A DNA stretch of 64,000 nt from Thermoplasmata archaeon (GCA_021817225.1 JAKAVR010000001.1:8002-72001), one strand, 5' to 3'. Counted from the first letter of the stretch, positions 2,456-64,000 are shown. The notes: generated from the letters alone by a model not told the origin. Numbers and translations: made by a program.

Positions 2456-2456
2456 T

Positions 2457-14125: not shown

Positions 14126-14194
14126 CTGCTGCCTCTCGCAATTGACATCATCGAGAGGAATGACTAAAACCTGTCGATGAACAGTGCCAGCGCC

Positions 14195-14539
14195 TCAGGT
14201 TTTCATTATTGCCAGGAGGAACACAAGAACAGCTATGACTGCGCCTATGATTGCGGCAACTATGCTCAGGAACGCTCCCCATATGACATCGGCGAGTCCT
14301 GGTGTAGTGTAGCTGTAGAAGTTGGCGATGAAGAGCCACGCAACAGCCACGACTATGCCGACGACAAGCAGCACTGCACCAACGGCCCTGCTTTTGCCTG
14401 TTCCAAAGTAGGAGGTGAATGCGCCAGCGAGTATCATGAAAATACTGAATGTGAGGAGGAGTATTGTTACGAAGTTGCCCGCATTTTCAGTCGGTATTGC
14501 ATTTCCCAGAGCGAGAAGGAATATCCCTTGTAGCATCAT
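14195..14539 (-). CDS. small membrane protein (4 TM)
   Basis: 114 aa, strongly hydrophobic. Confidence 0.45.
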   Translation of the reverse strand: MMLQGIFLLALGNAIPTENAGNFVTILLLTFSIFMILAGAFTSYFGTGKSRAVGAVLLVVGIVVAVAWLFIANFYSYTTPGLADVIWGAFLSIVAAIIGAVIAVLVFLLAIMKT

Positions 14540-14570
14540 TTACTTTCCAACCCTGAAATTCCCTCGATAC

Positions 14571-14807
14571 TTAAAACTTTATCCCGGTCAAAGTCTTCGT
14601 GTCGATCACGCCGGGAATGGCCCTTACCTTGTCGACAACAACCTGGCCAAGCAGGTTGAAGTCCTCCGCTTCAATCTTGGCGATGAGATCGTACTCGCCA
14701 AAGAGGGGATGAAGCTCAACAATCTCCTTGACCTTCAGGAGCTCGTTGTAAACCTCATGCTCCTTAGCAGGCGCCGTACTTATCAGGACGAACCCTACAG
14801 CCATCAA
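14571..14807 (-). CDS. stand-alone Lrp/AsnC C-terminal (RAM) domain protein
   Basis: '...EVYNELLKVKEIVELHPLFGEYDLIAKIEAEDFNLLGQVVVDKVRAIPGVIDTKTLTG', 78 aa. Confidence 0.55.
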   Translation of the reverse strand: MMAVGFVLISTAPAKEHEVYNELLKVKEIVELHPLFGEYDLIAKIEAEDFNLLGQVVVDKVRAIPGVIDTKTLTGIKF

Positions 14808-14971
14808 CTTCGCCTCGTCCTATGTAACAGCCGTTATGTTCTTAATTATATCGTTGATATTCAATTCAGACATAATATGCATGCGCAGCTGTCAGTGCAT
14901 GGCAGAGCGATGTCCGGTGGTCCTGAACAGGCGGACGGATAGGACCAGTTAGCAGCCGCAACAACCGAAAG

Positions 14972-48058: not shown

Positions 48059-50701
48059 TCAGGCAGGTTCTGATTTCCTTAGCAGAAGGCTCAGACCCAA
48101 TGCAATCATCACCGACCCTGGAATTATGAGTATGTAGCCCCCGGAAATGTTTGTGTTCGAGTACGAGATGAAGGCACCGGCATACAACGCCAGACCAAGC
48201 AGCATCGAAGCCGTTGCGGCGGCATTGTGCCGCTTCTTTTTCATGACCATGCCTCCGGCCATCCCGAAAGCAACTTTTGACTGAGCTGTCCGGTCAGCGC
48301 CTGCATTGTCCATTGCCGTCACCCGTCTCACTTTCATTCCAGGCGGCTCTGCGGCAGCTGCGACCGCCTTCGGGGCAGCTTCCTGCCTTGCTGTGGTTGT
48401 TGAAGGGCCGCTGTTCAACAATTCCGCAACCCTCGTCGAAACCCTGTCTGATATGTCGCTGGACATTGCCTGGAGTCTGTTGTCGAGCTCGTTCTTGAGC
48501 ACCAGTCTGTCTGTGAGCGACTTGACTTCCTTTTTCACTGCGAATATCTGGTCTTCCATGTCGCTCCTGATATCCTCAATACTTGTCCTTAGCTCGTTAC
48601 GGACACTCACTTCGCTGGAGAGCGCTTCCACTCGGCCATAAAGGGTTTCGAGGCTTTCGTTCAATCGCATAATGCCGTTCTTCACCTGTTCCAGATTTGC
48701 AAGATCGGGTGATTTCGCCTTTCGCTCCACAGTCCCCCCAACAATTTCCTTCTGCACCACTCCTGCTCCGATTTTCTTCCTGAGTTCAAATAGCCGATCC
48801 TCCATGCCAGCAATCTTCTCTTCAAGATTCTTGAGCCCATCACCAGCAGGATCTGCGTTATGCTCACTCGAACTGGGATGCATACTGACAGGCACCACTG
48901 TTTCTTCAGTGGCACCGGTGAAATTCAGGCGGTTCTTTCCCAATTCTTCAGCTCCACCGACACTGACAAGAGATATGCCGGGGCTGTCGTTCCTCCCAGG
49001 CCCATCGGCTTCCTTCTCCTGAGCGGAGTCGAGGATTATAACGTTTGAATTCGGCTGGGATTCACCGGCTGGTGTGCTGCTCGTCGTGACCTCACTCTTC
49101 ACTGCGGGGGCTGCTGCAGGAAGGGCGATATTTGCTGTCTTCTTTGTTTGCCTGTGCTGTCCCTTAAGCACCGAAGAGCCTGCTCTAGAAGCAAGTGTGA
49201 ATGCGAATGTGGAAACAACTATCGAGGTGAGCGCAAGAACGTAAATTGTACCTGAAGAGCTGGTCTGTGTCTGCAGCAGCAGGACGGAAATTGCCGCGAC
49301 TGTTACGCCTCGTGGCATCGTGGCACCCACGAGCTTGAAGTCTTTTCTGAAACTCTCTTTGTTCTTTCTGCTGTAGAACGCCAGTGGAAGACCGAACATG
49401 CCGCTGAGATACCGCAGGCCAACAAAGATCGGGACCATCAGCAGTATCAGCTCAATTGCACCTTTCACCTCGTTCGGAGGAATGGGAGGCAGGCCCTGCG
49501 GGGGGGAGAAGAGCATAAGGCCCAGCTCGATCCCGATGCTGAAGTAGAACACTATCCGGATGAGCAGCTCTATTTCATCGTGGAAGAGCATCATTCCAGT
49601 GAAAGTCCTCTTTCCCTGCAGAGATGAATCACTCTCGTAGCTCTTCCTTCCACCCCCGGGGAAAAGATATCCTATGAAAAAGCCCAGATATATCAGTGCG
49701 ATCAGGGCAAAGAGTGCGTTCGCAAAACCGGCAAATGAAGTGAGTCTCAGCATTTCCTCAAAAACAAGCAGTCCTATGCCCAGGACAATTCCGTAAAGGA
49801 TCATGCCCATCCTCATCTGCTTCTCGCTGAACTCCGTTACATCCGCTGAACGGCGTATTTCTATGTCTTCGGTGGAGGTGGGAAATGGCTTCCTCAGGTA
49901 GAGCACTGCATAAGGCTCTATGCCCGACTTGTTTCCGCCTGAAAGTCTTCGTTTGACAAAGAAGACAATTGTTCTTGAGCTCATGTACACAATAATCGGG
50001 ATTCCTGCAAGAGCGAAGACAAGCACCACAAGATGGTAGTCAATGACGCTTGATAGCGCACTTGCAGTTGTCTGAAGGAAGACAGGGATCGTAGGCGAAT
50101 TATTCCCGATGAATATCTGATTGTAGAAAATCGCAACCATGAGCAGCAGTACTATGCTGTTCATGGTGGATTCCAGTTTTATGACACTCGTGAGTTTTGT
50201 CAGATGTTCCGTTTTGTATGCCCGTTCCGCTGAAAGATTCGTGATGTGATTGAGATACGGAACCACGACTGCGGCGGAAGTCTCACCAATTATCGAACCG
50301 AACAGAGCGCCGAGCGCCCATGGCCATCCAAGCAGCAGCTGGCAGACATAGGCAAAGACTACAGCCGATGAAACGATGTCCACTACCGCCATGATGATGC
50401 CGCCGGCGGCGACTCTAAGGCCCGACCCGCGCAGCTGTTTGGCATCAAGACCGAGCTTGAGTCCCGTCCCCAGGTATATCAGCACGAGTACTGTGTCTGT
50501 AATCAGCGGTATTGAAAAGAACTGTATGAATGAAACGAAAGTCTGCGGCACAGCAATGAAATTGTACACCATGAGGAATGCGAATCCTACACCCCCAAGC
50601 ACAAGAAGCAGGACCTGGAATGCTACACCCGCCACAAATTCATAGATGGCAAATGTCAGAATGGAACCTATCAGTATGAGATACGTTGCGAAAAGCAACA
50701 C
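48059..50701 (-). CDS. cation:proton antiporter domain (N-terminal, about 440 aa) fused to a long coiled-coil/Ser-Thr-rich C-terminal region ending in a TM anchor
   Basis: Na+/H+ exchanger-like N-half. C-half has heptad-like 'LEEKIAGMEDRLFELRKKIG...' segments and terminal TM helices. Confidence 0.6.
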   Translation of the reverse strand: MLLFATYLILIGSILTFAIYEFVAGVAFQVLLLVLGGVGFAFLMVYNFIAVPQTFVSFIQFFSIPLITDTVLVLIYLGTGLKLGLDAKQLRGSGLRVAAGGIIMAVVDIVSSAVVFAYVCQLLLGWPWALGALFGSIIGETSAAVVVPYLNHITNLSAERAYKTEHLTKLTSVIKLESTMNSIVLLLMVAIFYNQIFIGNNSPTIPVFLQTTASALSSVIDYHLVVLVFALAGIPIIVYMSSRTIVFFVKRRLSGGNKSGIEPYAVLYLRKPFPTSTEDIEIRRSADVTEFSEKQMRMGMILYGIVLGIGLLVFEEMLRLTSFAGFANALFALIALIYLGFFIGYLFPGGGRKSYESDSSLQGKRTFTGMMLFHDEIELLIRIVFYFSIGIELGLMLFSPPQGLPPIPPNEVKGAIELILLMVPIFVGLRYLSGMFGLPLAFYSRKNKESFRKDFKLVGATMPRGVTVAAISVLLLQTQTSSSGTIYVLALTSIVVSTFAFTLASRAGSSVLKGQHRQTKKTANIALPAAAPAVKSEVTTSSTPAGESQPNSNVIILDSAQEKEADGPGRNDSPGISLVSVGGAEELGKNRLNFTGATEETVVPVSMHPSSSEHNADPAGDGLKNLEEKIAGMEDRLFELRKKIGAGVVQKEIVGGTVERKAKSPDLANLEQVKNGIMRLNESLETLYGRVEALSSEVSVRNELRTSIEDIRSDMEDQIFAVKKEVKSLTDRLVLKNELDNRLQAMSSDISDRVSTRVAELLNSGPSTTTARQEAAPKAVAAAAEPPGMKVRRVTAMDNAGADRTAQSKVAFGMAGGMVMKKKRHNAAATASMLLGLALYAGAFISYSNTNISGGYILIIPGSVMIALGLSLLLRKSEPA

Positions 50702-51046
50702 TTCTTCAGTTGACGGATAACTTGGGATGGCAGTCGTTTAAGCACTTCTCCCTATCCTCGACTTTATTTGCGTCTTCTATGCGCATTTCAGGCGGATGCC
50801 GGATCATCCTTTCCAGTTGGGTTTGTGATATAAAAAGGGTAAAGACCTGATTATCATCCCGAGGTCCAACATTTCCCCCTGCTTTCACATCAGGGGCACA
50901 ATTTTGTTCCCCTTTCAATTCTTATAAGTTGCAATTCATAAGACCCGCTGTGACTAGGAAAATCACAGTAAACATGTGCATTACCCCGGATGGGCATTCA
51001 GAATTCCAGGATTATCCGGGCCCGGATGCCCAGTTGAATGAACCGG

Positions 51047-51083
51047 GTGCGGCTGCCGGGATATACACATTAAGGTTCGAATC
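51047..51083 (+). repeat. cassette-boundary repeat, copy A
   Basis: 'GTGCGGCTGCCGGGATATACACATTAAGGTTCGAATC', 1 mismatch to consensus. Ends 72 bp past the vapC-1 stop. Confidence 0.85.
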
Positions 51084-51154
51084 TGAGATTGAATGGTACG
51101 TGCCTAAAGAAGACGTTTCAATGTTCAGTGTCAATTTGCACTAGGCGGGCAGTT

Positions 51155-51628
51155 TCAGCCTTTAGCGTGATGGACTGCTTTGGCCGTAGTGATACCGGAC
51201 CTTATTGCCCTGGTTATGCTCCAAACCTCAATAACGCGCTCATCCCGTATCTGATTGAAGTGCTTGTCATTGGTGATGAGGATTGCACTTTCCTGAAGGC
51301 AAGTGGCCGCATGAAGTGTGTCTGCCGGTTCGTTTGCCGGCATATATTTGGCGCAAATGGAAACGAAGTTGTTTCCAACCTGAACCATACGCATTCTGTT
51401 GAGCAGTGCCTCAACAAGTAAGGCTGCTGTTTCGGAATGAAATTCCTCTGCATACCGCAGCATCTCCTCTACCCAAAATTCATTTCCAACAAGTTGTAAG
51501 TTGTCATTTTGTATAAGTTCCAGTAGGAAACGAAGTGTACCCGTTTCCCTGCCTGGATGCCTCACAGCAGCTACGAAGACGTTGGTATCAAGGAGAAAGG
51601 ACCGGATAGGACTTTCTGATAAGAGCAT
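51155..51628 (-). CDS. vapC: PIN-domain toxin (VapC-1)
   Basis: 'LLDTNVFVAA' and 'ILITNDKHF' PIN acidic motifs. Confidence 0.7.
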   Translation of the reverse strand: MLLSESPIRSFLLDTNVFVAAVRHPGRETGTLRFLLELIQNDNLQLVGNEFWVEEMLRYAEEFHSETAALLVEALLNRMRMVQVGNNFVSICAKYMPANEPADTLHAATCLQESAILITNDKHFNQIRDERVIEVWSITRAIRSGITTAKAVHHAKG

Positions 51629-51881
51629 TTACGTCCTTCCTGATACGGCTGGCTATTTCATCGATGTCTTTGCCTTCCAGTTCCTTTTCAAGGCGCGCAG
51701 CTATTGATTTCACATCCAATTTCTGGAGTATTATGCGACCGCCTCCAGAGATTGTGATAAGAATCTTCGCGCCTTCATCAATTCCGGCCGCCTTCCGGAT
51801 TTCCTTAGGTATTACTATCCTACCCGCCCTGTCTATTCCTGCTATCTCTTCCATTGATTCATGTATATGCCATAATGCCAT
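51588..51881 (-). CDS. vapB: AbrB/SpoVT-fold antitoxin (VapB-1)
   Basis: 'AGRIVIPKEIRKAAGIDEGAKILI' swapped-hairpin motif. Overlaps vapC. Confidence 0.65.
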   Translation of the reverse strand: MALWHIHESMEEIAGIDRAGRIVIPKEIRKAAGIDEGAKILITISGGGRIILQKLDVKSIAARLEKELEGKDIDEIASRIRKDVNALIRKSYPVLSP

Positions 51882-52096
51882 TTAATCTTTATGTTGGTAT
51901 AATGGCAGTTCATCCGACACATGATGTGGATTGCAAAGCCTGGAGCGGACACTGCATTTCACGCCATATCAGTGATTGGAGCGTCTCATTCATGTTGTTC
52001 CCATTCCAGGATATGTTGACCCAGAGTCTCAAGTGTCCGGATTGCAGGCGAGCAACTATTCACTCTAAGCTCGAATTCTTAGCCATCTTTGAATAT

Positions 52097-52134
52097 GTGC
52101 GGCTGCCGGGATAAGCGCATCAATGTTCGAATCC
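52097..52134 (+). repeat. cassette-boundary repeat, copy B
   Basis: 'GTGCGGCTGCCGGGATAAGCGCATCAATGTTCGAATCC', 4 mismatches. Confidence 0.8.
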
Positions 52135-52373
52135 TGGAGACTACTTATAGACGCCCGCTTTGATTGAGCAACAAGGTTCCAACTCATTTAAGGTAGAAAT
52201 CTACCTTGTGACATTACGTGATTAACGCTGGCATCTATAGTCTGAAATACACTGCCTACGACGATGAAAGCTGTCTGCAATCTCCCGCTCATTTACGGAT
52301 TGCTCAAATAGCCGCATTACTCTCGAGGATTGCTGTAAGTAAGCCCGATTGGACCTTTAACTCCCTGTCAAAT

Positions 52374-53297
52374 TCAAATCACACGCTTCTTAACATCGCT
52401 CATACTTTGCACAAGACTGTCCTTGTCTTCGACTACCAAGACATTATACCTCACCCTCCTTCCACTTGAGAGGAGGAAGTAAATCCAGCCTGAATATGGC
52501 CGCTTGAATGGATTCAGGGTCTTCCTTACGTATCCTATTTCTTCCACAACTTTCCTGTCAATCCAGAAATCGTTCGGAAAGTGGTCAGAGGGACCACCAG
52601 ACTTAAGCGACTCAATCCTCTGCTGGCATATTTCCCTGATTGTTCCTCTCTTGAGACTGTCGTTCCACATTTCCTGGGAGTTACTTATGGGGCCCTGAAC
52701 TTGTTGAGGCGAGAGACATGTAAGGAAAATCAAACGTTTGTTCGTTACGATAATCACGTTCTCAGTGTATTTTCCTTCAGCAACCCCCTCCTCAACAGGG
52801 TGGAGCCTGAACACAGGTGCGGCGTGAGCCAAAAGTCCTTCTCCAGGCAGGAGTTGAACCGGAGAATTTCCAAAAGGATTAATCCCCTCTTCCCCTCTCT
52901 GTATATTTCCCCTAAGATTCTCCTCCTTATTGAGGTATAGCTGCCCGATCCGCCTGCTTTGGTATATCGCAAGCACGAGGATAAATAGCAGTATCAGGAA
53001 CAATACAGCCACATCATATATGGGAAGACCGAGTGGAATCGAGATTATGACAACGATCAATAAAAGGAAGAAGATGACGAGTCGTGCAAATGTTCGCATA
53101 GCTGACTGTCTCTTCATGGCAGTGGCTCCGATTGCCCCTGCTCTACCGGGACCACTGTATGTTGCACCTGCTGAAGGTATGCCATTGGTTGTCGGATTGC
53201 TCAGTTGTTTTCCGCATGAGGTGCAGTATACAGGGTTCCCCGAATGTTCAGTGCCACAATTTGGGCAACACACTAGGTTGTAAAGGGCATTTACCAT
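52374..53297 (-). CDS. double zinc-ribbon / transmembrane protein with uncharacterised C-terminal domain
   Basis: 'CPNCGTEHSGNPVYCTSCG', then 2 TM helices, then a roughly 190-aa soluble domain. Confidence 0.5.
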   Translation of the reverse strand: MVNALYNLVCCPNCGTEHSGNPVYCTSCGKQLSNPTTNGIPSAGATYSGPGRAGAIGATAMKRQSAMRTFARLVIFFLLLIVVIISIPLGLPIYDVAVLFLILLFILVLAIYQSRRIGQLYLNKEENLRGNIQRGEEGINPFGNSPVQLLPGEGLLAHAAPVFRLHPVEEGVAEGKYTENVIIVTNKRLIFLTCLSPQQVQGPISNSQEMWNDSLKRGTIREICQQRIESLKSGGPSDHFPNDFWIDRKVVEEIGYVRKTLNPFKRPYSGWIYFLLSSGRRVRYNVLVVEDKDSLVQSMSDVKKRVI

Positions 53298-53709
53298 AAG
53301 CGCTCATTCCTCAGAAACATCAACCTGCCCATACATCCGCCTACTTTGGGAAGAACAATACTGGAATTTCTGCTTACCAGAAACAGAGGAATATCGTCCG
53401 AGACGGACGATGTCGCGTAGTTGATCTGACTGTATTTACTTAAACTTAGTGATTTATTTTATCACATGTCTCATAATCAGTGCCAATTACTGGAATTCTA
53501 AGAGTGGACAAGTTACTGAGAAATGCGGCCAAAGCATCCAGTGGAAGATGGTGCGTGAAGCTGTAGAACCAATACTCCCGTGCGACGGCGGCCAATATCT
53601 CCATGACATACCTGGAAGGTGCAAGGTGTGGAAGGTATCGAGGCACAACAGGATTGGGCATTAGAGCGACTTAGGCGACAATATCTTGAAAGTGTTGGAT
53701 TGATTATAA

Positions 53710-55278
53710 TATTAATCCCTGACTCCCGCTGATTTAGGCAATCTGTCTCCAGTTCTTCGATTTTGAGCACGATTTCATCGGCAGATCTAAGTACTAGCTT
53801 GCCTATATACACTATTGATGACCACATTCCCGGAATGGGTGCTGAAATACAGGGAGAAGGGGACTGATGTCAGATACCTGAATGGTCACTACTACCTCTA
53901 CAGTGTGACGAGCAAATACGATCCTTCTGTGAAGCGGTCGCGGAAAGTAACACTTGCATATCTCGGCAGGATAACGCCAGAAGGACTTGTGAGGCCCAAG
54001 GCAGCCAGGATGATGGACGAGCTGCAGTACATAACAAACAGGGAGTATGGTGCATCGAGCTTCATACTCTCCGAGTGCTCCGATGTGATCGAGCTCCTGA
54101 AGAAACACTTCCCCGATGAATGGAAGGAGATTGCAGTGTGCGCAATCATGCGCTTCTTCCATTCATCACCCATGAAGAACATGCAGCTGCACTATGTTTC
54201 GTCGCATCTCTCCGATGCGCTGCCTGATGCACGTATGTCGCCCGAGAGTGTGAGCAATCTGCTGCACTACACTGGACTGCGAAGGCAGAGGATTGTTGAC
54301 TTCATGTCAAACTTTGTTCAGGGGGAGCAGTGCGTCATAGACCTGACGCACGTATTCTCGAGGAGCGAGAATGTAATAGCCGCCACACTGGGCCACAACC
54401 CCGGCGGCGGCCACATTCCTCAGCTGAACATGGTACTACTGACATCTTTGAAGGGCAACCACCCATCATTTTTCAGGATTGTGCCTGGGAGCATCGGCGA
54501 TGTATCCACGATAAGGATGACCATGAAGGAGGCTGGCATATCCGGTCCTGATGCTGTCCTGGTCGGAGACAAGGGTTTCTACTCAAAGGACAACATGCTC
54601 TTCCTCGAGAAGGAGAGGATGCGCTTCATACTGCCGCTCAGGAGGGACAGCGCATTCATCGATTACATACCTGCAAGGGGTGACGCACGCACAAAGTTCG
54701 ACGGCTGCTTCATGTTCGATGAGAGGGTCATATGGCACAGCAGGAGGGACATTCGGAAGAGGAGAGTGATCCTCTTCCTCGACGAAGACCTCAGGACGGA
54801 GGAGGGGAGGGACATGATCGCGCGCATAAAAGATGGCAGGGGAAGGATGTCATCGTACCATGAACAGATGCAGAAGATGGGAACCATTGCGATCATAACA
54901 AACACGACGGCACGTCCGCAGAGGGTGTATGAGCTTCTGAAGAGGAGGATAGAGATAGAGCAGACATTCGACACGTTCAAGAGCACACTGCATGCGGACC
55001 GCTCCTACATGAGGAGCGATGTGAGCATGCAGGGATGGATGTTCATCAACTTTGTTGCACTGCTGCTCTATTACAGGGTATACGACCTGCTGTTCAGGAG
55101 GAAGCTGCTCAAGAAATACTCGCCGGGGGACGTGGTGCTGCACCTGTCGCTCATATCGAAGATGAAGATTGGCGACAGGTGGGTGCTGTCTGAGATACCA
55201 AAGCAGTCCAGGATACTCATGGAGAAACTTGAAATCAGCGTATCGATTGCCTAAATCAGCGGGAGTCAGGGATTAATA
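53710..55278 (+). mobile_element. IS element (IS4/IS1634-like), 1569 bp, perfect 34-bp terminal inverted repeats
   Basis: Left IR 53710-53743 'TATTAATCCCTGACTCCCGCTGATTTAGGCAATC' is the exact reverse complement of 55245-55278. No flanking target-site duplication. Confidence 0.85.
53815..55254 (+). CDS. DDE transposase (IS4/IS1634-like, 479 aa)
   Basis: 'LVGDKGFYSKDN' and 'IEIEQTFDTFK' DDE-region blocks. Lies inside the TIR-bounded element. Confidence 0.75.
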   Translation: MMTTFPEWVLKYREKGTDVRYLNGHYYLYSVTSKYDPSVKRSRKVTLAYLGRITPEGLVRPKAARMMDELQYITNREYGASSFILSECSDVIELLKKHFPDEWKEIAVCAIMRFFHSSPMKNMQLHYVSSHLSDALPDARMSPESVSNLLHYTGLRRQRIVDFMSNFVQGEQCVIDLTHVFSRSENVIAATLGHNPGGGHIPQLNMVLLTSLKGNHPSFFRIVPGSIGDVSTIRMTMKEAGISGPDAVLVGDKGFYSKDNMLFLEKERMRFILPLRRDSAFIDYIPARGDARTKFDGCFMFDERVIWHSRRDIRKRRVILFLDEDLRTEEGRDMIARIKDGRGRMSSYHEQMQKMGTIAIITNTTARPQRVYELLKRRIEIEQTFDTFKSTLHADRSYMRSDVSMQGWMFINFVALLLYYRVYDLLFRRKLLKKYSPGDVVLHLSLISKMKIGDRWVLSEIPKQSRILMEKLEISVSIA

Positions 55279-55440
55279 CATCATCATTAAAATGTCCCCC
55301 ATGGGCATACCACTCCTTCTGCAGTCACCTGTTGGAATCTGCGTATCTCTTTGGATTCGCACCTTTTGGTTCTATTTTGGGAGAACTGATATCCCCGCTT
55401 CATTTGCTATAGGTTCGAATCTGATGCCCAAACGGACCGT

Positions 55441-55478
55441 GTGCGGCTGCCGGGATATACGCATTAAGGTTCGAATCC
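55441..55478 (+). repeat. cassette-boundary repeat, copy C (consensus copy; extended unit 55410-55478)
   Basis: 'GTGCGGCTGCCGGGATATACGCATTAAGGTTCGAATCC'. Upstream half-site 'TAGGTTCGAATC' at 55410-55421. Confidence 0.85.
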
Positions 55479-55670
55479 TGGCTTTTGCACCCTGAGCATA
55501 GAATCTGGCTACTTCACCAGCATAAGGCTCTCACCTATCTTCATTGTCTAATGTACATTGTTTGCCAGGGTGATGCCAGCAATCAACAGATATGCTCATT
55601 CTTCAATCTTAAAATGCCCCTTATAAGATCTGTCCATATATACATGCAGATCCTGAATTTCTTTTAAATC

Positions 55671-56036
55671 ATGTCAAGAGTGGTCTCGACCTATTTTCAT
55701 GCAAACCGTAGTATCATTAAAGTTTTGCAAAAGCTGATACAGCTAAGCGTGGTTAACTATAGACGAACTAGCTTGACTCTAAAACTGAAGATCGGGAAGA
55801 AAGGATACGTGATTATTCCAAAAGCGATTAGAAAGGCAATCGGTGTTGATGAAGGCGATGACCTGATAGTCACTGTTGAAGACGGAATAAGGCTAATTCC
55901 CGAAAGGAAGATTGACAGGAACTCGTTGCATAAAGCGATTGCTCGCCACAAAGCAGCTGTCTTTTCTATGGGCAAAGCCAAGGCCCCTAGGGTAGGGGAA
56001 GCAAAGAAGTACTCACTGGAGGACGAGTTTGACTAA
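55671..56036 (+). CDS. vapB: AbrB/SpoVT-fold antitoxin (VapB-2)
   Basis: 'IGKKGYVIIPKAIRKAIGVDEGDDLIV'. True start probably internal (GTG 55749 or TTG 55773). Confidence 0.55.
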   Translation: MSRVVSTYFHANRSIIKVLQKLIQLSVVNYRRTSLTLKLKIGKKGYVIIPKAIRKAIGVDEGDDLIVTVEDGIRLIPERKIDRNSLHKAIARHKAAVFSMGKAKAPRVGEAKKYSLEDEFD

Positions 56037-56128
56037 TGTTTTCATAGACACCAGCCTTTTTGTTTATCTTAACACACCATCAATAAACTTCGTCAAATGT
56101 GCTGCCTTCTATGAAGATGAAATTAATG

Positions 56129-57555
56129 CATTGGTGTTCGGTTAAGGAAATGCCAGTTCATCTCCCATCAGCCTCCTTCTCCTGACATTCGGATCCAGCG
56201 CAGGACTTTCATAGAAGGCGAGTGCCTTGTCGAAGCCATCCTCTATGTCCATGTAGTCAAGCAGGAAGTCAAACAGCCTTGTTCCCCTCTCTACAAATAT
56301 CTTTGACCATCTCAGGCGCGTGTACCGTATTGCGTCGATTCCCTTCCCGTCCACAACTATGAGATAGAGGCGGCGGGAAACGAGCATTGTTATGAGTGCA
56401 GTCCATACAAGCGCTTCCACAGCATGCGGGTTGGCCGTTGGCATCTGGTCCAGCCTGTACTGTGATTTCAACTCCTTGAACACAAGCTCTATCTCCCATC
56501 TGCAGCGGTAGAGTGTGGCGACTTCCGCCGCATTGAGCCTCCCGACAGGGAGGTTGGTAATGTATGAGTGATACTCCCTCCTGACATCATCCCACACGCA
56601 TACGAGCCTGAAACGTGCGGCCGCAGCAGATCTGCTGCCACGGTACTGCCTCTTCCTGAACGACACCTCGACAACTGCATCCAGCATACCATGATGCATC
56701 TCTGGAAGGAGTTCGCTGAGATGCCTCCCGGGCACACCTTCCGGGAGTCCGCTGCCCGCATTCACGCTGAGTATGAGCACATCGGCATTGGATTTCAGTC
56801 TTGAGAGGAAGTAACCGCCGTTCGCCTCAATCCTCTCAAACAGGGAGTATTTGAAGAAACCGGGATCTGCTATGAACAGCCTGTCCTTCACCCACTTTCC
56901 AATCCTGACTGTCTTTATCTCCGCCTGCCTCTCGCCGAATATGCGGACAGACTTCGGTCCGCCGCCTGTCATGCTTATGATTGCAGATACCCTGATGCCT
57001 GCGGCAATCCTCCTGCTCCTTGTTGCAGGCCACATCTCTGCAAGCTTTGCATTGAGCCTGATGACACTGCTGTCCTGGACAACAATATCCTTCAGGAAGG
57101 AGAGCGCTTCCTTCAGTTTCTTTCCCGGAAGCGATGAAAGCTGCTCCATGCCGTGCAGCACGCACTCATGAAGAAAGCGGACGAGCTCCGGGCTGAAGCG
57201 CTCATAGAAGCTGCTCATCGCAATACCGATGCCTGCCCTCTCCTCATAGCCGCGCTTCAGCGATGCCAGTGTCCTCTGCGTGTGCATGCTTATGCTGAGT
57301 GCAAACGTCCAGAAGAGATAGACCGGATCTATCTTCCTCTCCCTCTTCACGAGACCCGTCTTCCTTGCAGTGCTCCGAAGCCACTGAGGAGAGTACATTT
57401 CTGTGAGTCTCTCCTCCACAATGTAATCGTTCTTTTCTTTCTCTGCAGGCACTCCCTTCCGTTTGTTTACAGATACTCTCATTCATGCATCCCGGAAAGT
57501 GAATGCCAGTGGCGCTGTAAATAATTATTCAGAAATCCTTAACCGAACACCGATG
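56129..57555 (-). mobile_element. IS4-family insertion sequence, 1427 bp, 19-bp imperfect IRs, 10-bp TSD
   Basis: IR 'CATTGGTGTTCGGTTAAGG' (56129-56147) versus the reverse complement of 57537-57555. TSD 'GAAATTAATG' at 56119-56128 and 57556-57565. Confidence 0.85.
56142..57482 (-). CDS. IS4-family DDE transposase (446 aa)
   Basis: 'LYRCRWEIELVFKELK' Y-(2)-R-(3)-E-(6)-K motif typical of IS4. Confidence 0.85.
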   Translation of the reverse strand: MRVSVNKRKGVPAEKEKNDYIVEERLTEMYSPQWLRSTARKTGLVKRERKIDPVYLFWTFALSISMHTQRTLASLKRGYEERAGIGIAMSSFYERFSPELVRFLHECVLHGMEQLSSLPGKKLKEALSFLKDIVVQDSSVIRLNAKLAEMWPATRSRRIAAGIRVSAIISMTGGGPKSVRIFGERQAEIKTVRIGKWVKDRLFIADPGFFKYSLFERIEANGGYFLSRLKSNADVLILSVNAGSGLPEGVPGRHLSELLPEMHHGMLDAVVEVSFRKRQYRGSRSAAAARFRLVCVWDDVRREYHSYITNLPVGRLNAAEVATLYRCRWEIELVFKELKSQYRLDQMPTANPHAVEALVWTALITMLVSRRLYLIVVDGKGIDAIRYTRLRWSKIFVERGTRLFDFLLDYMDIEDGFDKALAFYESPALDPNVRRRRLMGDELAFP

Positions 57556-58020
57556 GAAATTAATGACAATCATGCTTACACAAATGTTGTTGTTCTTGAC
57601 GAACTACTCTATGTGTCAAAGAAGAAATATGGGGTACCTTATTCCACAACGCTTGATTTGATTGACTCAGCAATAGTCCCTTACGTCGACATCTTGAACA
57701 TAGATTTGAACACCTACACAACAATGAAAGAAATCCTCAGATACTGTCCTAAACCGAGCGATGCTCTTATTGCCGCAACAATGAAGAATTCCTCTATGGG
57801 TATCATTCTTAGCGAAGATGGCGGGTTTGATAAGATTCCGTTCATTGAGCGAAAGTGGATAGATCACTGAGATCGCCCTCTTATTCGTTTGACGATCTAT
57901 TTACTTCCAGATACGAGTGACCAGAATATGTAAGCGGTGTCTTAATAATCTGTTTATAAATATAATGTTGTTAAAATGCACCTTGTTGGATCTGATTGTA
58001 GGTGCATCCAAACCAAGACT

Positions 58021-58060
58021 GTGCGCGACTGCCGGATTATGCGCATTAGTGTTCGAATTC
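58021..58060 (+). repeat. cassette-boundary repeat, copy D (degenerate)
   Basis: 'GTGCGCGACTGCCGGATTATGCGCATTAGTGTTCGAATTC'. Ends 73 bp past the vapC-3 stop. Confidence 0.7.
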
Positions 58061-58132
58061 AATATAGGTCTTCATTGTAAGGGAAAAATCCAAGGTTGAC
58101 CGTTGACTTCAGTCACCCATAAGCCTCCAAAC

Positions 58133-58540
58133 TCACTGACTTGGCTGCTGTATTTCGAGACCACGAATTCTCCTGAATTCCTTCACATTGTTTGTAACAA
58201 GAGGAATACCGAGTGCCATTGCTGTTGCTCCAATTAGCATATCAAGCGACCCTATCGGTTTTCCGTTGTTTTCAAGGCTCGCTCTAATCTTTCCATAACA
58301 AACTGCGGCGTCATGGTCGAATTCGGCCACCTCCAGAGGCAGGAGAAACTTGTCCAGGGCTCTCTTGTTTCTCTCCTGACTCGAACTCTTCCGCACACCG
58401 TATTCCAATTCGGCAAGAGTTATCACCGAAATTCCCAACTCGCCTGCCTCATGTGCCCTGATCCATGGAAGGCTCCTGTCTCGGAATGCCTTGTTCCTGA
58501 TTAGGTCAATGCAATAGTCTGTGTCGAGCATGAGGATCAA
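58133..58540 (-). CDS. vapC: PIN-domain toxin (VapC-3)
   Basis: 'MLDTDYCIDLI' and 'PLVTNNVKEF' PIN motifs. ATGA overlap with vapB. Confidence 0.8.
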   Translation of the reverse strand: MILMLDTDYCIDLIRNKAFRDRSLPWIRAHEAGELGISVITLAELEYGVRKSSSQERNKRALDKFLLPLEVAEFDHDAAVCYGKIRASLENNGKPIGSLDMLIGATAMALGIPLVTNNVKEFRRIRGLEIQQPSQ

Positions 58541-58779
58541 TCGAACAGCTCCCCTCTCTTCTTCTGCAAAGGCTGTTTCCTTGATTCCATGAAGTCATCG
58601 GTGAACATTGATAGGCCTTCGACAAACACGTTCCAGACGTCTTCCATAGGCATCAACAACAGATTCACCCCATTCCTCTTGACATAGACCTCCTTGGCAT
58701 TTATCCGGAAATCGGCAGGGAGTCTGACTGCCTGGCTGTTTCCACTCTTGAAAACCTTAGCAGTCCTGATTTTTGGCAT
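58537..58779 (-). CDS. vapB: AbrB/SpoVT-fold antitoxin (VapB-3)
   Basis: 'KVFKSGNSQAVRLPADF'. Confidence 0.75.
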   Translation of the reverse strand: MPKIRTAKVFKSGNSQAVRLPADFRINAKEVYVKRNGVNLLLMPMEDVWNVFVEGLSMFTDDFMESRKQPLQKKRGELFD

Positions 58780-59007
58780 GATGATGTATATACATTAATG
58801 TATATATGTAGTTATCTAGGGGGCGCCCTTCCCATCATCTGATCCATAAGGGAGTGAAACGAGGAGGATCGCACAAACCGAAGAAGCAAAGTCAGTCAAT
58901 AATGTGGATTTTGCCCGATCTGGGTCTTCAGTTTCACTTTCTGGTGTGATGAAACTTCTTGTCACACTTTCTCCATGTTAGAACCTGATATCCAGATAGG
59001 GTATTCA

Positions 59008-59042
59008 CTGCGGTCGCGATATACGCATCAAGGTTCGAATCC
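59008..59042 (+). repeat. cassette-boundary repeat, copy E (internal deletion)
   Basis: 'CTGCGGTCGCGATATACGCATCAAGGTTCGAATCC'. Ends 42 bp past the fic stop. Confidence 0.75.
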
Positions 59043-59083
59043 TCGGTGACGGGCAATATCATTGATTTTCTAGAGCATTGCCT

Positions 59084-60010
59084 TCAATCTTTATTATTGC
59101 CCTGCGGCACGATCATTGTATATTGCTCCAATAGCAGATTTCCTAGGAACATGGCAAAGGATTTGTGGTTTCCTGCATCCCCTTTTTCCAATTCATTGTA
59201 GTATTGTTCCCTGTCAGTGAATTCCACTATGACAGGCGGAAACTTAGACCTTATGAGTATCCAGTTCATCATGAGCCTGGCAGTTCTTCCGTTCCCATCC
59301 GCAAATGGATGAATGTTAACGAGTCTGTTATGCACATAAGCCGCAAGTTCTACAGGATGGTTGCTCTTTCTCTTGCTGCGAATCTCCTCCATCAGTGAAT
59401 TAAGGAGCTTAGGGACCTCAGAGAATGTGGGCGGAATATGAGAAGAACCCGCAATTCTGACTTCACCGTCCCTGAATTTGCCTTGAATTCTGCAAGAAGT
59501 GTTCTTTGTTACCTCGTACTGCACTTTGCTCAAGAATCCATTGCTGAAAGGTCCTTTGTAGTTCTTGATAAAATCCCATGCATCTGCTGCGTTCAGGACT
59601 TCTATCACGTCATCCGTCCTTGCACCGGCAGGAGACACTCTATCACTGAGCAGCAGTGCAGTTTGCCGTAGGGTGAGCCTGTTGCCTTCTATCGCGTTTG
59701 TGTTGTAAGTGTATCGCACAAGAAAGTCTTTAGGTATTGCTTCAATCGGCTTTCTGTATACCGTGATCAGCGATGCTCTGATGTCATCCAGCTTCGCTAT
59801 CATGTCACTTTGCAGCCAAGTGGTTTTGAACCGGGGAGTTGACTGCTTTTCCAATTTGAAAAGATGCCTGCGCAATTCTTCAGGCGGGGGTATTTCTCTT
59901 CCAAGGAAAATTCTATACTTCTTTACAGTGGTGGCGTTGGCCCTCACGTTCTTGACCAGATAATAGTAATTGTGATTTCCATGCCGTTGAGTTTCGATGA
60001 AGGACATCAA
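59084..60010 (-). CDS. Fic/Doc-family protein (probable AMPylase)
   Basis: Fic motif 'HPFADGNGRTARL'. Confidence 0.8.
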   Translation of the reverse strand: MMSFIETQRHGNHNYYYLVKNVRANATTVKKYRIFLGREIPPPEELRRHLFKLEKQSTPRFKTTWLQSDMIAKLDDIRASLITVYRKPIEAIPKDFLVRYTYNTNAIEGNRLTLRQTALLLSDRVSPAGARTDDVIEVLNAADAWDFIKNYKGPFSNGFLSKVQYEVTKNTSCRIQGKFRDGEVRIAGSSHIPPTFSEVPKLLNSLMEEIRSKRKSNHPVELAAYVHNRLVNIHPFADGNGRTARLMMNWILIRSKFPPVIVEFTDREQYYNELEKGDAGNHKSFAMFLGNLLLEQYTMIVPQGNNKD

Positions 60011-60305
60011 GTATGGCTACGCTTTCCTTGATTTTAAATATTGTGGCCATAATGACCACTTTAGTATTATTACTGACTAAAGTAGCCATATAAGTCCATA
60101 TTCAAGTCAGGTTGTTTAGCAGATATGATGGACTCTCTGAATGAGCTGCAAGCGTGAGATAGTCACCGAATAGCATAAAAATGGATCTTCTGTAGCGGAC
60201 AGTAGGTGTTACCAGGTGAATTCGAGTCTCAAGGTTCGATTTTCGGTTACATGAACTGATTTTTTCGCTCACTTTAGGTTCGAATACAATGCCGCCATGG
60301 ATTAT

Positions 60306-60343
60306 GTGCGGCTGCCGGGATATACGCATTAAGGTTCGAATCC
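60306..60343 (+). repeat. cassette-boundary repeat, copy F (consensus; extended unit 60275-60343; extra half-site 60231-60244)
   Basis: 'GTGCGGCTGCCGGGATATACGCATTAAGGTTCGAATCC'. Ends 62 bp past the stop of the 408-aa gene. Confidence 0.85.
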
Positions 60344-60404
60344 AATCAGGGTGGAATTGTGGAGGTTGACAGAACTCAAGTTGCGAAGTTCAGGCTTGAT
60401 GAAT

Positions 60405-61631
60405 TTATTCCTCTTCGTGCTTCCGAAGCACCATCTGGGCTTCTAGAGGTATGCGCCTTTCGATCGAGGCTATCCAACTTACAAGCTCCTCTACGTTGCA
60501 GTTTTCCCCAGCCACTCGCAAATTCATGCTCTGGATGTTTAGGTATCGGAGAGCATTTTTGGCTTCTTCGGGCTCATCTTCCGAGTTGTAGGTGCTCACT
60601 GCCCAGCCGAATGGAATCAGCTCAGGCACTGTAGGCAACCAGTCATCTAGCCTTTCGTCGATATGTTCGAACGCATTTCTTACTCTGCGCGATATCATAG
60701 GATTCTCTCCTTTGATGCCCAGAATAAGCCGCAGCTCTCGCCCTCTCCTCACAGATCTACTGACCGCTTCAGGTCCTCTACCTTTATCAGGATTCGGCCA
60801 GAGAATGTGGGAAATGTTCGAAGCTGCTGAAAGCAAAGCATGAACCAAAAGCCAGATTCTCTGGTTCCATTGCCTCTTTCCTTTGTCATCAATCGGGGGT
60901 GGATCCTTCCCGGCCGATACAAAGGCCATAAACGCCGTAGCAATCTGGGCCGATTGTTCACGTAGTTCTACCATGAAGACAGCTAGTTCCCTAGCTTCTT
61001 CTGTCGAGCGTTGCAGTTCTTGCTCTGGCACTGGATCTTGGGCTATTATCGTTTTCAGAATACTGGCAGCTGCCTCTAAGGATCCAAATGCACTATTCTC
61101 AGTTATCCAAAGTTCCACCGCGCTGGTTATTTTACATATAGTGCTCAATGCAAAGTCTGTTTTCTGCGCTAGGCGGCTGCTAAAATTCCTCTTATTCCTC
61201 ACGAAATTGATTCGGTCTTCGATTTTAGTATCCACTATTTTCTTGTCTTTTGCTGATTGGATTATTCTACCCCAATCACTCTGGATATAGTCAAAGCTTA
61301 TGCGAAATACTCCTTCCTTCAGTCCGTTGCCTGGCTTCTTAACGACTTTCCTTATGACAGCAATGTATACAGCGGTTTCAATTGCTGCGCCACACATTAC
61401 AGCCGTGGCCAGATACGCACCATTTTGGAAGCAAGAGATGGACTCACGAAGGAGATCTATCGATGGCATGAAGAGAGTTGTTCTTTCAGTATCTAGTTTT
61501 TGTAATTCCAATCCACTCCAAAGTTCAGTTACTTTCACCTGTCTCGCCTTGCGATACTCATCGCATCTTGTGGGTCCGATGAATATTCCTGGTGTTTTCT
61601 GGTTTCTTAGGGCCCTTGGCTTGGTCGTCAT
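60405..61631 (-). CDS. hypothetical 408-aa protein with a possible HEPN-like R-x4-H motif
   Basis: 'RRVRNAFEHIDERL' fits R-x4-6-H. Otherwise no recognised domain. Cassette position. Confidence 0.4.
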   Translation of the reverse strand: MTTKPRALRNQKTPGIFIGPTRCDEYRKARQVKVTELWSGLELQKLDTERTTLFMPSIDLLRESISCFQNGAYLATAVMCGAAIETAVYIAVIRKVVKKPGNGLKEGVFRISFDYIQSDWGRIIQSAKDKKIVDTKIEDRINFVRNKRNFSSRLAQKTDFALSTICKITSAVELWITENSAFGSLEAAASILKTIIAQDPVPEQELQRSTEEARELAVFMVELREQSAQIATAFMAFVSAGKDPPPIDDKGKRQWNQRIWLLVHALLSAASNISHILWPNPDKGRGPEAVSRSVRRGRELRLILGIKGENPMISRRVRNAFEHIDERLDDWLPTVPELIPFGWAVSTYNSEDEPEEAKNALRYLNIQSMNLRVAGENCNVEELVSWIASIERRIPLEAQMVLRKHEEE

Positions 61632-61754
61632 GGGAAATGAGTATTCACCAATGCTTTACAAATCTCTTCTCGTCTAGGTTCATTTCGGCACTACACACGA
61701 ATGAGACTCAACTGGCTAGACAGGAAGTGTTTGTAGATCTAGGGGAACAGAGAC

Positions 61755-62932
61755 TATTGTTATGACAATTTAGATATTCGGTATATCTATATACACGCTT
61801 TCCCATATCCTGTCCGATGAGAAGGCTCGACATCATGCTGAATGACAAAGACATATCAAGACTCAGGAAGATCATAAAGAGCGGCATGGTGATGGTCAGG
61901 GCGGTGATGCGCGCCAATGTTCTGCTTCTGTCCGTTTCAGGGAAAGGAAACGACGACATCGCTCAGATACTCAACATCAACCGCGACACAGTACTCAGGA
62001 TAAAGAAAAGATACATGCAGGGCGGCATAGACATGGCTGTCTACGACGGAAAGAGGCCGGGACAGCCGAGGAAGTACACTGAAAAACAGATGGCGGAGAT
62101 AACGGCGCTCGCATGCACGAAGCCTCCGGGCGGCAGAAAGAGATGGTCTGTGCGCCTGCTGACGGACGAACTGAAGAGGAGGAAAGGCTTCAGGAGCATA
62201 AACAGGGAGACAGTCAGGCTCATTCTAAAAAAAACGGAACAAAGCCGTGGAAGAGAAGAATGTGGTGCATCCAGGCCATAGACAGCGAATACAGGAAGAG
62301 GATGTACGACGTGCTCGACCTCTATGCAAATCGAAGCAGAAGTGCTCATGTGATAGCCATCGATGAGAAACTGAAACAGATAGTATCGGACAGGAGAAAG
62401 ACCATACCGATGAAACCGGCTTCTCCTGAAAGGTATGACTACGAATACACGCGACACGGAAAGGCAAACATATTCATCGCCGTTGAACCGAAGAAGGGGA
62501 AGCGGATAGTAAAGGTGACGGAGAGAAGAACCAAAAGGGACTTTGCACTCTTCGTGAAGGAAGTCCTGAAAGAGTATCCGGAGGCAGGGAAAATCTGCGT
62601 GGTGCTGGACAATCTCAACACTCACTTTCCCGGTTCATTTGAGGAAGCGTTCGGAAGGGAGGAGAGGGAGAGGATCATGTCAAGGGTGGAATTCCATTAC
62701 ACACCGAAGCACGCAAGCTGGCTCAACATTGCAGAGATAGAGATCAATGTGATGGACATTGAATGCCCGGGAAGGAGATTCGAGAACAGGGAATCGCTGG
62801 AAAAGGAAACAGTTCTCTGGGCGGCGAAGAGAAACGCACAGAGAAAGAGGATAGAATGGGGATTCAACAGAAAACAGGCGGACAGGAAGCTGTCAAAATA
62901 TTATGCAACATAATTATATTGTCATGACACTA
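61755..62932 (+). mobile_element. IS630-family insertion sequence (about 1.18 kb), TA-flanked, imperfect 15-bp IRs
   Basis: Left 'TATTGTTATGACAAT' (61755-61769) versus right 'ATTGTCATGACACTA' (62918-62932), 13/15 complementary. TA at both outer ends. Confidence 0.65.
61817..62913 (+). CDS. IS630-family transposase, orfA/orfB joined by programmed -1 frameshift at an A8 run
   Basis: orfA 61817-62281 (HTH). orfB 62113-62913 (DDE 'VVLDNLNTH', 'HASWLNIAE'). Slippery AAAAAAAA at 62227-62234. orfB is in the -1 frame. Confidence 0.7.
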
Positions 62933-62965
62933 GACACGCTCTATTTGATAAGGGGATAAACTTGA

Positions 62966-63865
62966 CTACTGTTGAACTTCAAGTTCCCCTCTTTCAGCAA
63001 GAGATCTTATCTTCTTCTTCAGAACATCAACAAAACCCAATTCTCCCCTGAGTATGTTTTTTAACTCTTTACCTGAAAGTATCACAAAATTAGGTGCTTT
63101 CCCTACTTTCATTGCCTCCAAACCGTCTTCGGTAAAGCCATGTACCGAAATAAAGAGACCCCTAGTCCACGAACTCTTACGTTCAACCTTGTCGGAAAAA
63201 GATGCAAGATCAGATTTTGCAGCCTTTTTTGTCCTCCACCTTGCCTCCAGAAGATAGACTTCCGAGTCAAGGGTGAAAGAACCATCTACTTCTTCGCCAG
63301 TTACTCGAAATGGTTTTCCTGGATTTAATCCAAAATCCGAAAGGATGTCAAACAGCAATTCCTGGAACTCATATCCGCGGTTTTGGACATCTGGATTTGT
63401 TTCCATCAAGTCATATCTTTCACTAAATTCATGTAGTCTACTCCCTGAAATGTCCTCCATGTGCTTGGAATCATATAGATTGGATGACTCCTGCAGTAGC
63501 GAAAGGAAATCAGGATTGGACAACTCAGGTAGCACGAGTCCTAGATTCCTGATGGCCGTGTCGAGCAACACTACTTCCTCTTTGGTGACCGAATCGCCCT
63601 TCTTATCTCTGTATTTCATACCTTCTCTTACAATTGTGATTAGTAATGGGCCAAGGCATGCTTTTTCGAATGCACCTTCCAATAGACCCTGAAGTGCAGG
63701 GAGTTTGCTGCCGCCTGACCAATGAGCTTGAAGACCATGTCTCTGTGCAGCATCAGCAAAAGTGAATATGCGCCCAAAAGGAGGAGAAGATCCGGGAAGC
63801 CACTTGTAGAGCAGGGTGGCAATTTGGCTGATTAGTCTAGTTTGTCGGAAATCGGGCTTTGCCAT
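62966..63865 (-). CDS. Mrr-cat-like (PD-(D/E)xK) restriction-endonuclease-fold protein with uncharacterised N-terminal domain
   Basis: C-terminal 'VDGSF...YLLEARWR...GLFISVHGFTEDG' resembles the Mrr catalytic core. Tentative. Confidence 0.4.
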   Translation of the reverse strand: MAKPDFRQTRLISQIATLLYKWLPGSSPPFGRIFTFADAAQRHGLQAHWSGGSKLPALQGLLEGAFEKACLGPLLITIVREGMKYRDKKGDSVTKEEVVLLDTAIRNLGLVLPELSNPDFLSLLQESSNLYDSKHMEDISGSRLHEFSERYDLMETNPDVQNRGYEFQELLFDILSDFGLNPGKPFRVTGEEVDGSFTLDSEVYLLEARWRTKKAAKSDLASFSDKVERKSSWTRGLFISVHGFTEDGLEAMKVGKAPNFVILSGKELKNILRGELGFVDVLKKKIRSLAERGELEVQQ

Positions 63866-64000
63866 TCAAATTCAACCGTCGAATGAGTATTGAAATAGAT
63901 AATGACTTTTGATCGCGCTCACCGATGAAGTATATATCTGTAGGGCCTTTAAGTCTGGAAAAGCACTTGATACAATCAAGACACATCAGGAGGGCTGATA

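Follow-up and report, generated by a model that had tools for sequence, protein, structure and literature searches.

A tRNA-Gly-derived repeat bounds toxin-antitoxin and defence cassettes in a Thermoplasmata archaeon, with a probable origin by serial site-specific integration

Features of the array

The window analysed here is the whole 64,000-nt stretch of Thermoplasmata archaeon DNA (GCA_021817225.1 JAKAVR010000001.1:8002-72001). Between 51047 and 60343 it carries six direct copies (A to F) of a 38-bp repeat that bound cassettes of toxin-antitoxin (TA) and defence genes, and these repeats are attachment (att) copies derived from the 3′ end of tRNA-Gly. The array follows a conserved membrane-protein gene, just past which, at ~50.7 kb, G+C content drops from ~0.53 to ~0.46; the segment on the low-coordinate side of copy A (~50702-51046) is conserved host flank, and flank plus copy are 88-95% identical in four related loci (L011, L012, L015, L018). 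Pfam matches over the window comprise three PIN/AbrB pairs (one PIN split by an insertion sequence, IS), a zinc-ribbon protein, Fic, three transposases and an Mrr-like nuclease. On the minus strand each repeat copy reads as a 22-nt arm, GGATTCGAACCTTAATGCGTAT (P arm), followed by a 16-nt core, ATCCCGGCAGCCGCAC, and the copies are listed in that orientation.

48059-50701, minus strand: conserved membrane-protein gene bounding the array on the side away from the tRNA.
51047-51084, minus strand: att copy A, terminal (attR-like); core 51047-51062, 16/16 to the tRNA-Gly 3′ end; P arm 51063-51084.
51085-52096, minus strand: cassette 1, vapBC-1; PIN gene 51155-51628, AbrB/MazE-type antitoxin gene 51588-51881; 90% identical to a cassette at L027 1-490.
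52097-52134, minus strand: att copy B; core 52097-52112, 16/16; variant P arm GGATTCGAACATTGATGCGCTT.
52135-55440, minus strand: cassette 2, zinc-ribbon membrane-protein gene 52374-53297; downstream IS 53710-55278 (DDE_Tnp_1, 34-bp perfect inverted repeats).
55441-55478, minus strand: att copy C; core 55441-55456, 16/16; consensus P arm; second GATTCGAACC motif at 55412-55421.
55479-58022, plus strand: cassette 3, inverted; vapB-2 55671-56036, vapC-2 split by an IS4-like element (56129-57555, 20-bp inverted repeats), the PIN C-terminal part running to 57870.
58023-58060, minus strand: att copy D; degenerate core, 12/16, AATCCGGCAGTCGCGC; P arm GAATTCGAACACTAATGCGCAT; orthologous to copy 3 of L018.
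58061-59004, minus strand: cassette 4, vapBC-3; PIN gene 58133-58540, antitoxin gene 58537-58779.
59005-59042, minus strand: att copy E; P arm intact, GGATTCGAACCTTGATGCGTAT; core decayed.
59043-60305, minus strand: cassette 5, gene for a Fic-domain protein (59084-60007) similar to SoFic and PDC-S04.
60306-60343, minus strand: att copy F, outermost in the window; core 16/16 and consensus P arm; more motifs at 60277-60286 and 60233-60241.
60344-64000, minus strand: start of a block of at least 13.5 kb lacking an internal att copy; gene for a 408-aa protein 60405-61631, IS630-type element 61817-62913, Mrr-like nuclease gene 62966-63865.

Sequences within ≤2 mismatches of the 38-mer occur at 51047, 55441 and 60306 (chance expectation 0 in the 64-kb window), C and F being exact and A differing by two mismatches, while the diverged copies B, D and E at ~52097, 58023 and 59005 were recovered by repeat finding and a profile search. 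All six match on the plus strand and are confined to the array, as is the exact nonamer GGTTCGAAT, also found on the plus strand only. Neither the rest of the window nor the 10 kb beyond its right end, into which the sequence was extended (to 74 kb) with ena:ERZ27237313:k141_398448, has a further copy. The first-pass annotation, a reading of the window alone, had recorded six same-orientation copies, and all are present; its coordinates stand for A, B, C and F, and those of D (58023-58060) and E (59005-59042) are shifted by 2-3 nt.

A degenerate search pattern covering five of the six copies gave one match in 185,579 species genomes, on the contig of a Thermoplasmata metagenome-assembled genome (MAG) where the repeat lies within a ParE/RelE TA cassette bearing an IS. 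JGI metagenomes yielded no real match, the pattern hits L008-L010 being chance matches within coding sequence, and the IMG/VR viral collection contained neither an att match nor a relative of the integrase described below. The possibility of a dispersed repeat (miniature inverted-repeat transposable element, MITE, or repetitive extragenic palindrome, REP), which the first-pass annotation had raised, runs against this distribution: copies occur only in the array, and the single real match in another genome is itself in a TA cassette. Logan contigs carrying the gene for the 408-aa protein break exactly inside repeat F (L005 2002-2031, L006 1451-1480), as would be expected from the identity of C and F over more than 31 nt, which shows why short-read assemblies fragment such arrays.

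After subtraction of two IS, the five bounded units measure 1050, ~1775, ~1155, ~985 and ~1300 bp, in agreement with the 1.0-1.8 kb proposed earlier. Five one-module cassettes are bounded by repeats on both sides; the sixth that had been counted is the block of at least 13.5 kb, unbounded to the right, and the 408-aa protein falls outside any two-repeat unit, no copy following it as far as 74 kb. Of the five bounded cassettes, four face the same direction, the exception being cassette 3 (vapBC-2), whose inversion had been noted and is shared with L018. The repeats of A, D, E and F do lie close to stop codons as claimed, with the gaps corrected from 42-73 bp to 70, 74, 38 and 61 nt; for B, in the zinc-ribbon cassette, the distance is 239 nt. 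Among the four co-oriented bounded cassettes the site is 38-74 nt past the stop in three and 239 nt past it in the zinc-ribbon one.

Structure and origin of the repeat

The core ATCCCGGCAGCCGCAC is tRNA-Gly(CCC) sequence: it begins at A59 of the T-loop, takes in the 3′ end of the tRNA through the discriminator (positions 59-73) and adds the next base, and copies A, B, C and F match at 16/16 positions. In the related loci L015/L016 the tRNA-Gly(CCC) sequence terminates ...TCGGGTTCGAATCCCGGCAGCCGCA(C), from which it follows that GTGCGGCTGCCGGGAT, within the 38-mer, is the tRNA stretch from A59 to the discriminator plus one base in reverse complement. The 22-nt arm is non-tRNA sequence. A T-loop-like motif, GGTTCGAATCC, had been taken for the tRNA part of the repeat; it ends the non-tRNA arm, and the tRNA-identical part, GTGCGGCTGCCGGGAT, is at the other end of the 38-mer and on the opposite strand. 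A plus-strand tRNA 3′ half with GGTTCGAATCC as its T-arm was also rejected: no T-stem or acceptor stem follows the motif, ARAGORN and Rfam are negative, and the tRNA homology proved to lie at the far end of the repeat, on the opposite strand. ARAGORN called 0 tRNA genes in the window, and Rfam gave 0 matches in the window at gathering thresholds and none over the array at E<=10.

Written in tRNA orientation, a non-tRNA copy consists of an unconserved cargo flank, GGATTCGAACCTTAATGCGTAT, ATCCCGGCAGCCGCAC and a leader. Information content, averaged over 18 non-tRNA copies from at least five genomes whatever their cargo, was distributed as follows.

Upstream cargo flank: 0.24 bits per column.
22-nt arm: 1.43 bits per column.
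16-nt core: 1.65 bits per column.
Downstream leader: 0.55 falling to 0.25 bits per column.

The leader is cassette-specific and moves with the following gene: that of F matches the leader of the Fic cassette in L015, the downstream arm of copy B recurs at L027 copy 449, and the P′ arm type of copy C is common to L015_2, L022_2, L019 and L027_1580. The copies at tRNA genes have the core in common with the array copies, not the arm, and any crossover must therefore fall within the core. The abrupt edge after GGTTCGAATCC, previously suggested as a crossover point, is real (a fall from 1.4-1.7 to about 0.25 bits per column) and marks the outer limit of the arm instead. The exact crossover position and the integrase binding sites within the att copies are putative, and the conserved arm presumably belongs to the integrase recognition site.

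Folding of DNA and RNA for all six units on both strands was no better than for shuffled sequences (z -1.5 to +1.0), and pairing between arms was possible only in C and F. These two copies have a second GATTCGAACC-like motif ~57 nt upstream that is able to pair with the 38-mer's own, so that the description of the repeats as lacking a palindromic partner holds for most copies and fails for C and F. A structured RNA or attC hairpin, built on a GTGCG...CGCAT stem with arm-arm pairing, was rejected as neither above shuffles nor conserved. An 11-6-11 dyad of Xer type in the 38-mer was unconvincing by eye.

The tRNA-Gly anchor in related genomes

Relatives of the locus were found through orthologues of the membrane protein, then through a tRNA-intron endonuclease gene and the integrase. 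Membrane-protein orthologues in Thermoplasmata assemblies are 97, 89 and 83% identical, and beside each lies a differing short set of TA and Fic cassettes with the same repeat between them. The L015/L016 array ends at an intact tRNA-Gly(CCC), just outside which the core gene is that for the tRNA-intron endonuclease. Through this gene five further loci were retrieved in which the tRNA heads the array, and the integrase search added a sixth; the intact tRNA-Gly(CCC) is seen at the array start in L015/L016, L019, L021, L022, L024/L025 and L027. Where the arrays of relatives extend to the far end, they stop at the orthologue of the membrane-protein gene. Between this gene and tRNA-Gly(CCC) the locus forms a conserved hot spot.

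Two contigs of one MAG, L007 (JAJYOM010000195) and L025 (JAJYOM010000160), have the same end sequence, preceded by the tRNA-Gly core in one and by the arm and core of a ParE cassette in the other; the population could be heterogeneous for the ParE cassette, or the assembly could branch at the repeat.

tRNA-Ala(GGC) has a second att system with this design. In L011 an intact tRNA-Ala(GGC) follows purF (6791-6864); L012 is 99.3% identical to L011 from this tRNA onward and has only its last 19 nt, from the T-loop (L012 1158-1176), preceded by unrelated DNA (PEMT gene). The 22 nt before this fragment, CTGGATTCGCTTAAAACATCAA, have GGATTCG..CTTAA in common with the tRNA-Gly arm.

A dedicated integrase

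A dedicated integrase family accompanies the site. Beside the tRNA of L021 and L027 lies a gene for a 331-aa PF00589 protein that reads toward the tRNA and overlaps its 3′ end by 32 bp (L021, int 2526-3521 and tRNA 3490-3561), so that the protein tail ...ELCAAAGIRTRV, up to the stop, is encoded across the core. A remnant of this gene adjoins the core in L015/L016 (last 61 codons), with shorter fragments in L007. The best solved relatives are archaeal XerA proteins (4a8e, 5hxy), and the L021 integrase scores 122 bits on the archaeal XerA model (cutoff 220), 65.4 bits on the integron-integrase model TIGR02249 (cutoff 265) and 46.6 bits on NF011946 (cutoff 435). The clusters making up the family number ~20, at 39-93% identity; generic Xer proteins come next, after a gap, at 28%. 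One paralogue (51%) has a 28-bp overlap with tRNA-Arg(CCT) (L030, int 2534-3487 and tRNA-Arg 3460-3536), and distant paralogues (39-41%) are found in plasmid- or virus-like elements with MCM, PolB-thumb or ParB-type genes.

The open reading frames (ORFs) of this family converge on their target tRNA, with overlaps of 28-32 bp. The part of the protein that follows the catalytic Tyr, its C-terminal tail, is read across the att core and would differ between integrated and excised states. Upstream of int, ~415 bp are conserved (91%) between L021 (2013-2276) and L027 (9586-10000), beyond which homology stops, and no degenerate att site common to L021 and L027 is recognisable at the outer end of the int module. 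In L021 this upstream region includes an ORF of 87 aa that matches no family and could have an accessory or regulatory role.

Cassette-level variation

Genomes differ in their cassettes, and the breakpoints lie at the cores. In L015 the Fic cassette (2203-3529) aligns repeat to repeat with the window's F-E unit (W 13525-14851) at 88.7% over 1327 bp; it is the last unit in L015 and L011 and the fifth from the membrane-protein gene in the window, and it also occurs in L011, L012 and L018 at other array positions. L018 has the window's inverted vapBC-2 cassette intact and free of the IS (81%), L022 has the zinc-ribbon cassette without its IS as the second unit from the tRNA (86-88%), and the 140-aa cassette of L018 stands first in L019. 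When the VapB-PIN cassette of L018 is compared with the unit that stands first in L022, the alignment begins exactly at the core. L021 and L022, whose endonuclease proteins do not differ, match at 100% as far as 2 nt beyond the core, after which L021 continues with the integrase element and L022 with the VapB-PIN cassette. Presence/absence differences with breakpoints at the core were identified for the Fic, VapB-PIN, 140-aa, zinc-ribbon and vapBC-2 cassettes. The earlier proposal that the repeats partition cassettes is borne out, orthologous loci varying cassette by cassette with homology breaking at the repeats, and relatives hold different cassette subsets rather than an identical fixed gene content.

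In L027, two paralogous vapBC-3 cassettes are followed by vapBC-1. The two are adjoining (443-2494) and both ~81-82% identical to the window's vapBC-3 cassette, the result either of cassette duplication or of two separate acquisitions of paralogues.

Interpretation

The explanation that we consider probable is that the repeats are att copies used by the Xer-like tyrosine integrase that targets the 3′ end of tRNA-Gly(CCC), and that the array is a tRNA-anchored stack of integrase-less cassettes, built by serial integration and pruned by att x att deletion. The array would span from the tRNA gene, beyond the window on its high-coordinate side, to the membrane-protein gene at 48-50.7 kb, each unit comprising a cassette-specific leader, one gene or operon, the arm and the core. 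Small circular cassettes with arm and core but no integrase would recombine with the core in the tRNA; integration would restore the tRNA end and shift older cassettes toward the membrane-protein gene, and recombination between any two direct cores would excise one or more cassettes. The integrase would act in trans, because the window cassettes encode none. From comparison of the arrays we infer that single cassettes may be mobile in this way. The D and E cores are decayed and three IS have landed, so part of the window's array is probably frozen. Tandem site-specific integration had been offered as an alternative to the integron reading, and the tRNA core, the conservation of the arm and the breakpoints located in the core favour it.

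Several observations weigh against this explanation. No order conflict between arrays, which would prove reshuffling, was found: all orders fit one ancestral order with differential losses, and cassette divergence tracks flank divergence (Fic 88.7%, flank 88.4%). With colinear order and about equal divergence, direct evidence that cassettes were recently inserted or reshuffled is lacking outside the tRNA-proximal position; most of the array seems to have come down vertically and to have been pruned by deletions between cores, turnover being concentrated near the tRNA. Neither circular cassettes nor empty-site junctions were seen among these sequences. This genome's own platform is also unseen. 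A profile from 56 tyrosine recombinases found none in the window, as had been stated, or in the next 10 kb; homology searches gave no integrase or endonuclease match on the window's contig, and that contig has no tRNA up to 74 kb. The expected position of the platform beyond 64 kb is right as to side, since relatives have the intact tRNA-Gly(CCC) on the high-coordinate side and two of them the integrase beside it, but 64-74 kb contains neither. The closest relative, L011 (97% flank identity), has tRNA-Ala/purF at the far side and has lost the internal Gly-type repeats, and the window's own locus may be rearranged in the same manner.

A rival account makes the repeats inert scars, each the attR of a full-size integrase-bearing element decayed to one gene, the cassettes never having been mobile as units and the differences between genomes having arisen by ordinary deletion or homologous recombination between 38-bp repeats. 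Colinearity and matching divergence fit this account, as do the integrase remnant heading the first cassette of L015/L016, the fragments in L007, the decayed cores of D and E and the decayed internal repeats of L011, and degraded elements of this kind occur in tycheposon islands (10.1101/2020.12.28.424599). We nevertheless regard it as unlikely. A 22-nt non-tRNA arm is maintained at 1.43 bits per column in 18 copies beside unrelated cargo where neighbouring sequence is unconserved, the units are uniform (1.0-1.8 kb, one operon each), no integrase remnant was detected in any window cassette, and several independent multi-cassette differences end precisely in the core.

A true integron array without integrase (cluster of attC sites lacking integron integrases, CALIN), with the repeats as attC sites, is close to one of the two readings first offered, an integron-like architecture. 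Co-oriented small cassettes, a site 38-74 nt past the stop and TA/defence cargo are in keeping with it, and integrons and CALINs do occur in Archaea (PMC9668308). The reading does not survive comparison with the linked integrase, which is Xer-like, best matches XerA and reaches only 65 bits on the integron-integrase model (cutoff 265), or with the sites, which form no conserved single-strand hairpin (z -1.5 to +1.0, only C and F pairing arms) and are instead conserved in sequence, with the 3′ end of a tRNA as their core. A tRNA gene, and not attI, is the point of insertion, and GTTCGAA, as read from the sequence, misfits the GTTRRRY box. Both defining features, IntI and folded attC, are contradicted, leaving this account very improbable. 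The T-loop-like motif and the hairpin possible in C and F speak for a dispersed repeat of MITE/REP type, or for a tRNA-like element or structured non-coding RNA lying between genes by chance. These readings can be set aside as hardly credible: the copies are one-stranded and confined to the array, 185,579 species genomes gave a single real match, Rfam gave none at E<=10, no tRNA was called, folds were no better than shuffled, and the aligned units showed no terminal inverted repeats or target duplications.

Comparison with known systems

Tandem accretive site-specific integration is known from the accretion of integrative and conjugative elements and cis-mobilizable elements (ICE/CIME) in streptococci. 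Repeated use of a single tyrosine-recombinase site is documented to produce arrays in which partial-tRNA repeats are left behind (PMC6563490; bioRxiv 10.1101/2020.12.28.424599): archaeal integrated elements form arrays at tRNA att sites (PMC6563490), and in the tycheposon islands of Prochlorococcus a tRNA att site has served for successive integrations, with elements degraded and integrases fragmented (10.1101/2020.12.28.424599). The arrays described here resemble these in having an att core that is the 3′ part of a tRNA, direct partial-tRNA repeats between units, what would be newer units beside the intact tRNA of the relatives with older ones pushed inward, fragmented integrases, decayed sites, and a fixed chromosomal island with strain-level turnover. 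They differ in that the window units are 1-1.8-kb single operons without integrase or replication module, every junction also retains the conserved 22-nt non-tRNA arm, the integrase is Xer-like with an ORF running through the core into the tRNA, and the hosts are Thermoplasmata archaea related to Ca. Sysuiplasma.

Integrons, archaeal ones included, rely on IntI with an additional domain and on attC sites that fold as imperfect single-stranded hairpins (R''-L''/L'-R') (PMC9668308). Stacked small, mostly co-oriented cassettes, a site just after each ORF and TA/defence-rich cargo are common to both, as is a recombinase located, where present, at the insertion end, and the window array, lacking one, resembles a CALIN. 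Here, however, there is no signal of IntI or its specific domain, the sites are defined by sequence and not by a folded single strand, the tRNA 3′ end replaces attI, and the integrase gene is inside the first unit. The pdif/dif modules of Acinetobacter, which are plasmid-borne, depend on host XerC/XerD and alternate as C and D modules between inversely oriented 11-6-11 sites (PMC13141974, PMC6449649), are likewise small, often TA pairs, and flanked by short sites for Xer-type tyrosine recombinases in varying combinations; the sites here are direct (all six copies, with no inversely oriented 28-bp XerC-spacer-XerD sites), tRNA-derived, chromosomal and linked to a dedicated integrase. A literature search found no paper on this arrangement in Thermoplasmata. 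On the best reading, layout and cargo are integron-like and the mechanism is closer to tandem accretion at a tRNA att site, and the system is therefore classed as a variant of tRNA-anchored tandem integration converging on integron-like organisation.

A bolder possibility, which we put forward tentatively and think somewhat less likely to be right than wrong, is that this Thermoplasmata lineage has a second gene-cassette platform unrelated to IntI, in which the 3′ end of tRNA-Gly(CCC) serves as attI and the 38-bp site as attC, with the Xer-like integrase capturing, excising and reordering single-gene cassettes in trans and sister systems at tRNA-Ala and tRNA-Arg. Integrons are the textbook prokaryotic means of stockpiling single-gene cassettes and were reported only recently in Archaea. 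An integron-like outcome would here be reached with other parts: a tRNA gene as anchor, a Xer-like integrase and a short site after each gene. If the cassettes are mobile in trans, cassette platforms would have arisen more than once, archaea would offer a compact pair of sequence-defined 38-bp site and integrase, and the turnover of defence genes in uncultured Thermoplasmata would be explained. On the conservative reading too, the locus is a clean example of the assembly and pruning of tRNA-linked defence islands.

Additional features of the region

The block to the right of repeat F extends the defence content of the region. A complete MzaB-MzaC-MzaD-MzaE set (PADLOC, E 1e-27 to 1e-194) is encoded at L001 2380-9776, equivalent to window 64.1-71.5 kb, and adjoins the Mrr-like nuclease gene and IS630 element within the same low-G+C block ending at repeat F. 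The 64-74 kb stretch, with the Mrr-like gene and the Mza set, contains no tRNA, repeat copy or recombinase. The TA modules probably stabilise the stack, with Fic, Mza and Mrr probably adding defence functions. The 408-aa protein (60405-61631, minus strand) has no match among Pfam, NCBIfam or PADLOC models, and its earlier label, 'HEPN-like', finds no support in these profile searches.

At the other end of the array, the 880-aa flanking membrane protein (48059-50701) has no Pfam match. Its ~350-aa low-complexity C-terminal extension is found only in the closest relatives; distant orthologues are ~530 aa in length and are named 'cation/H+ exchanger domain' by one source.

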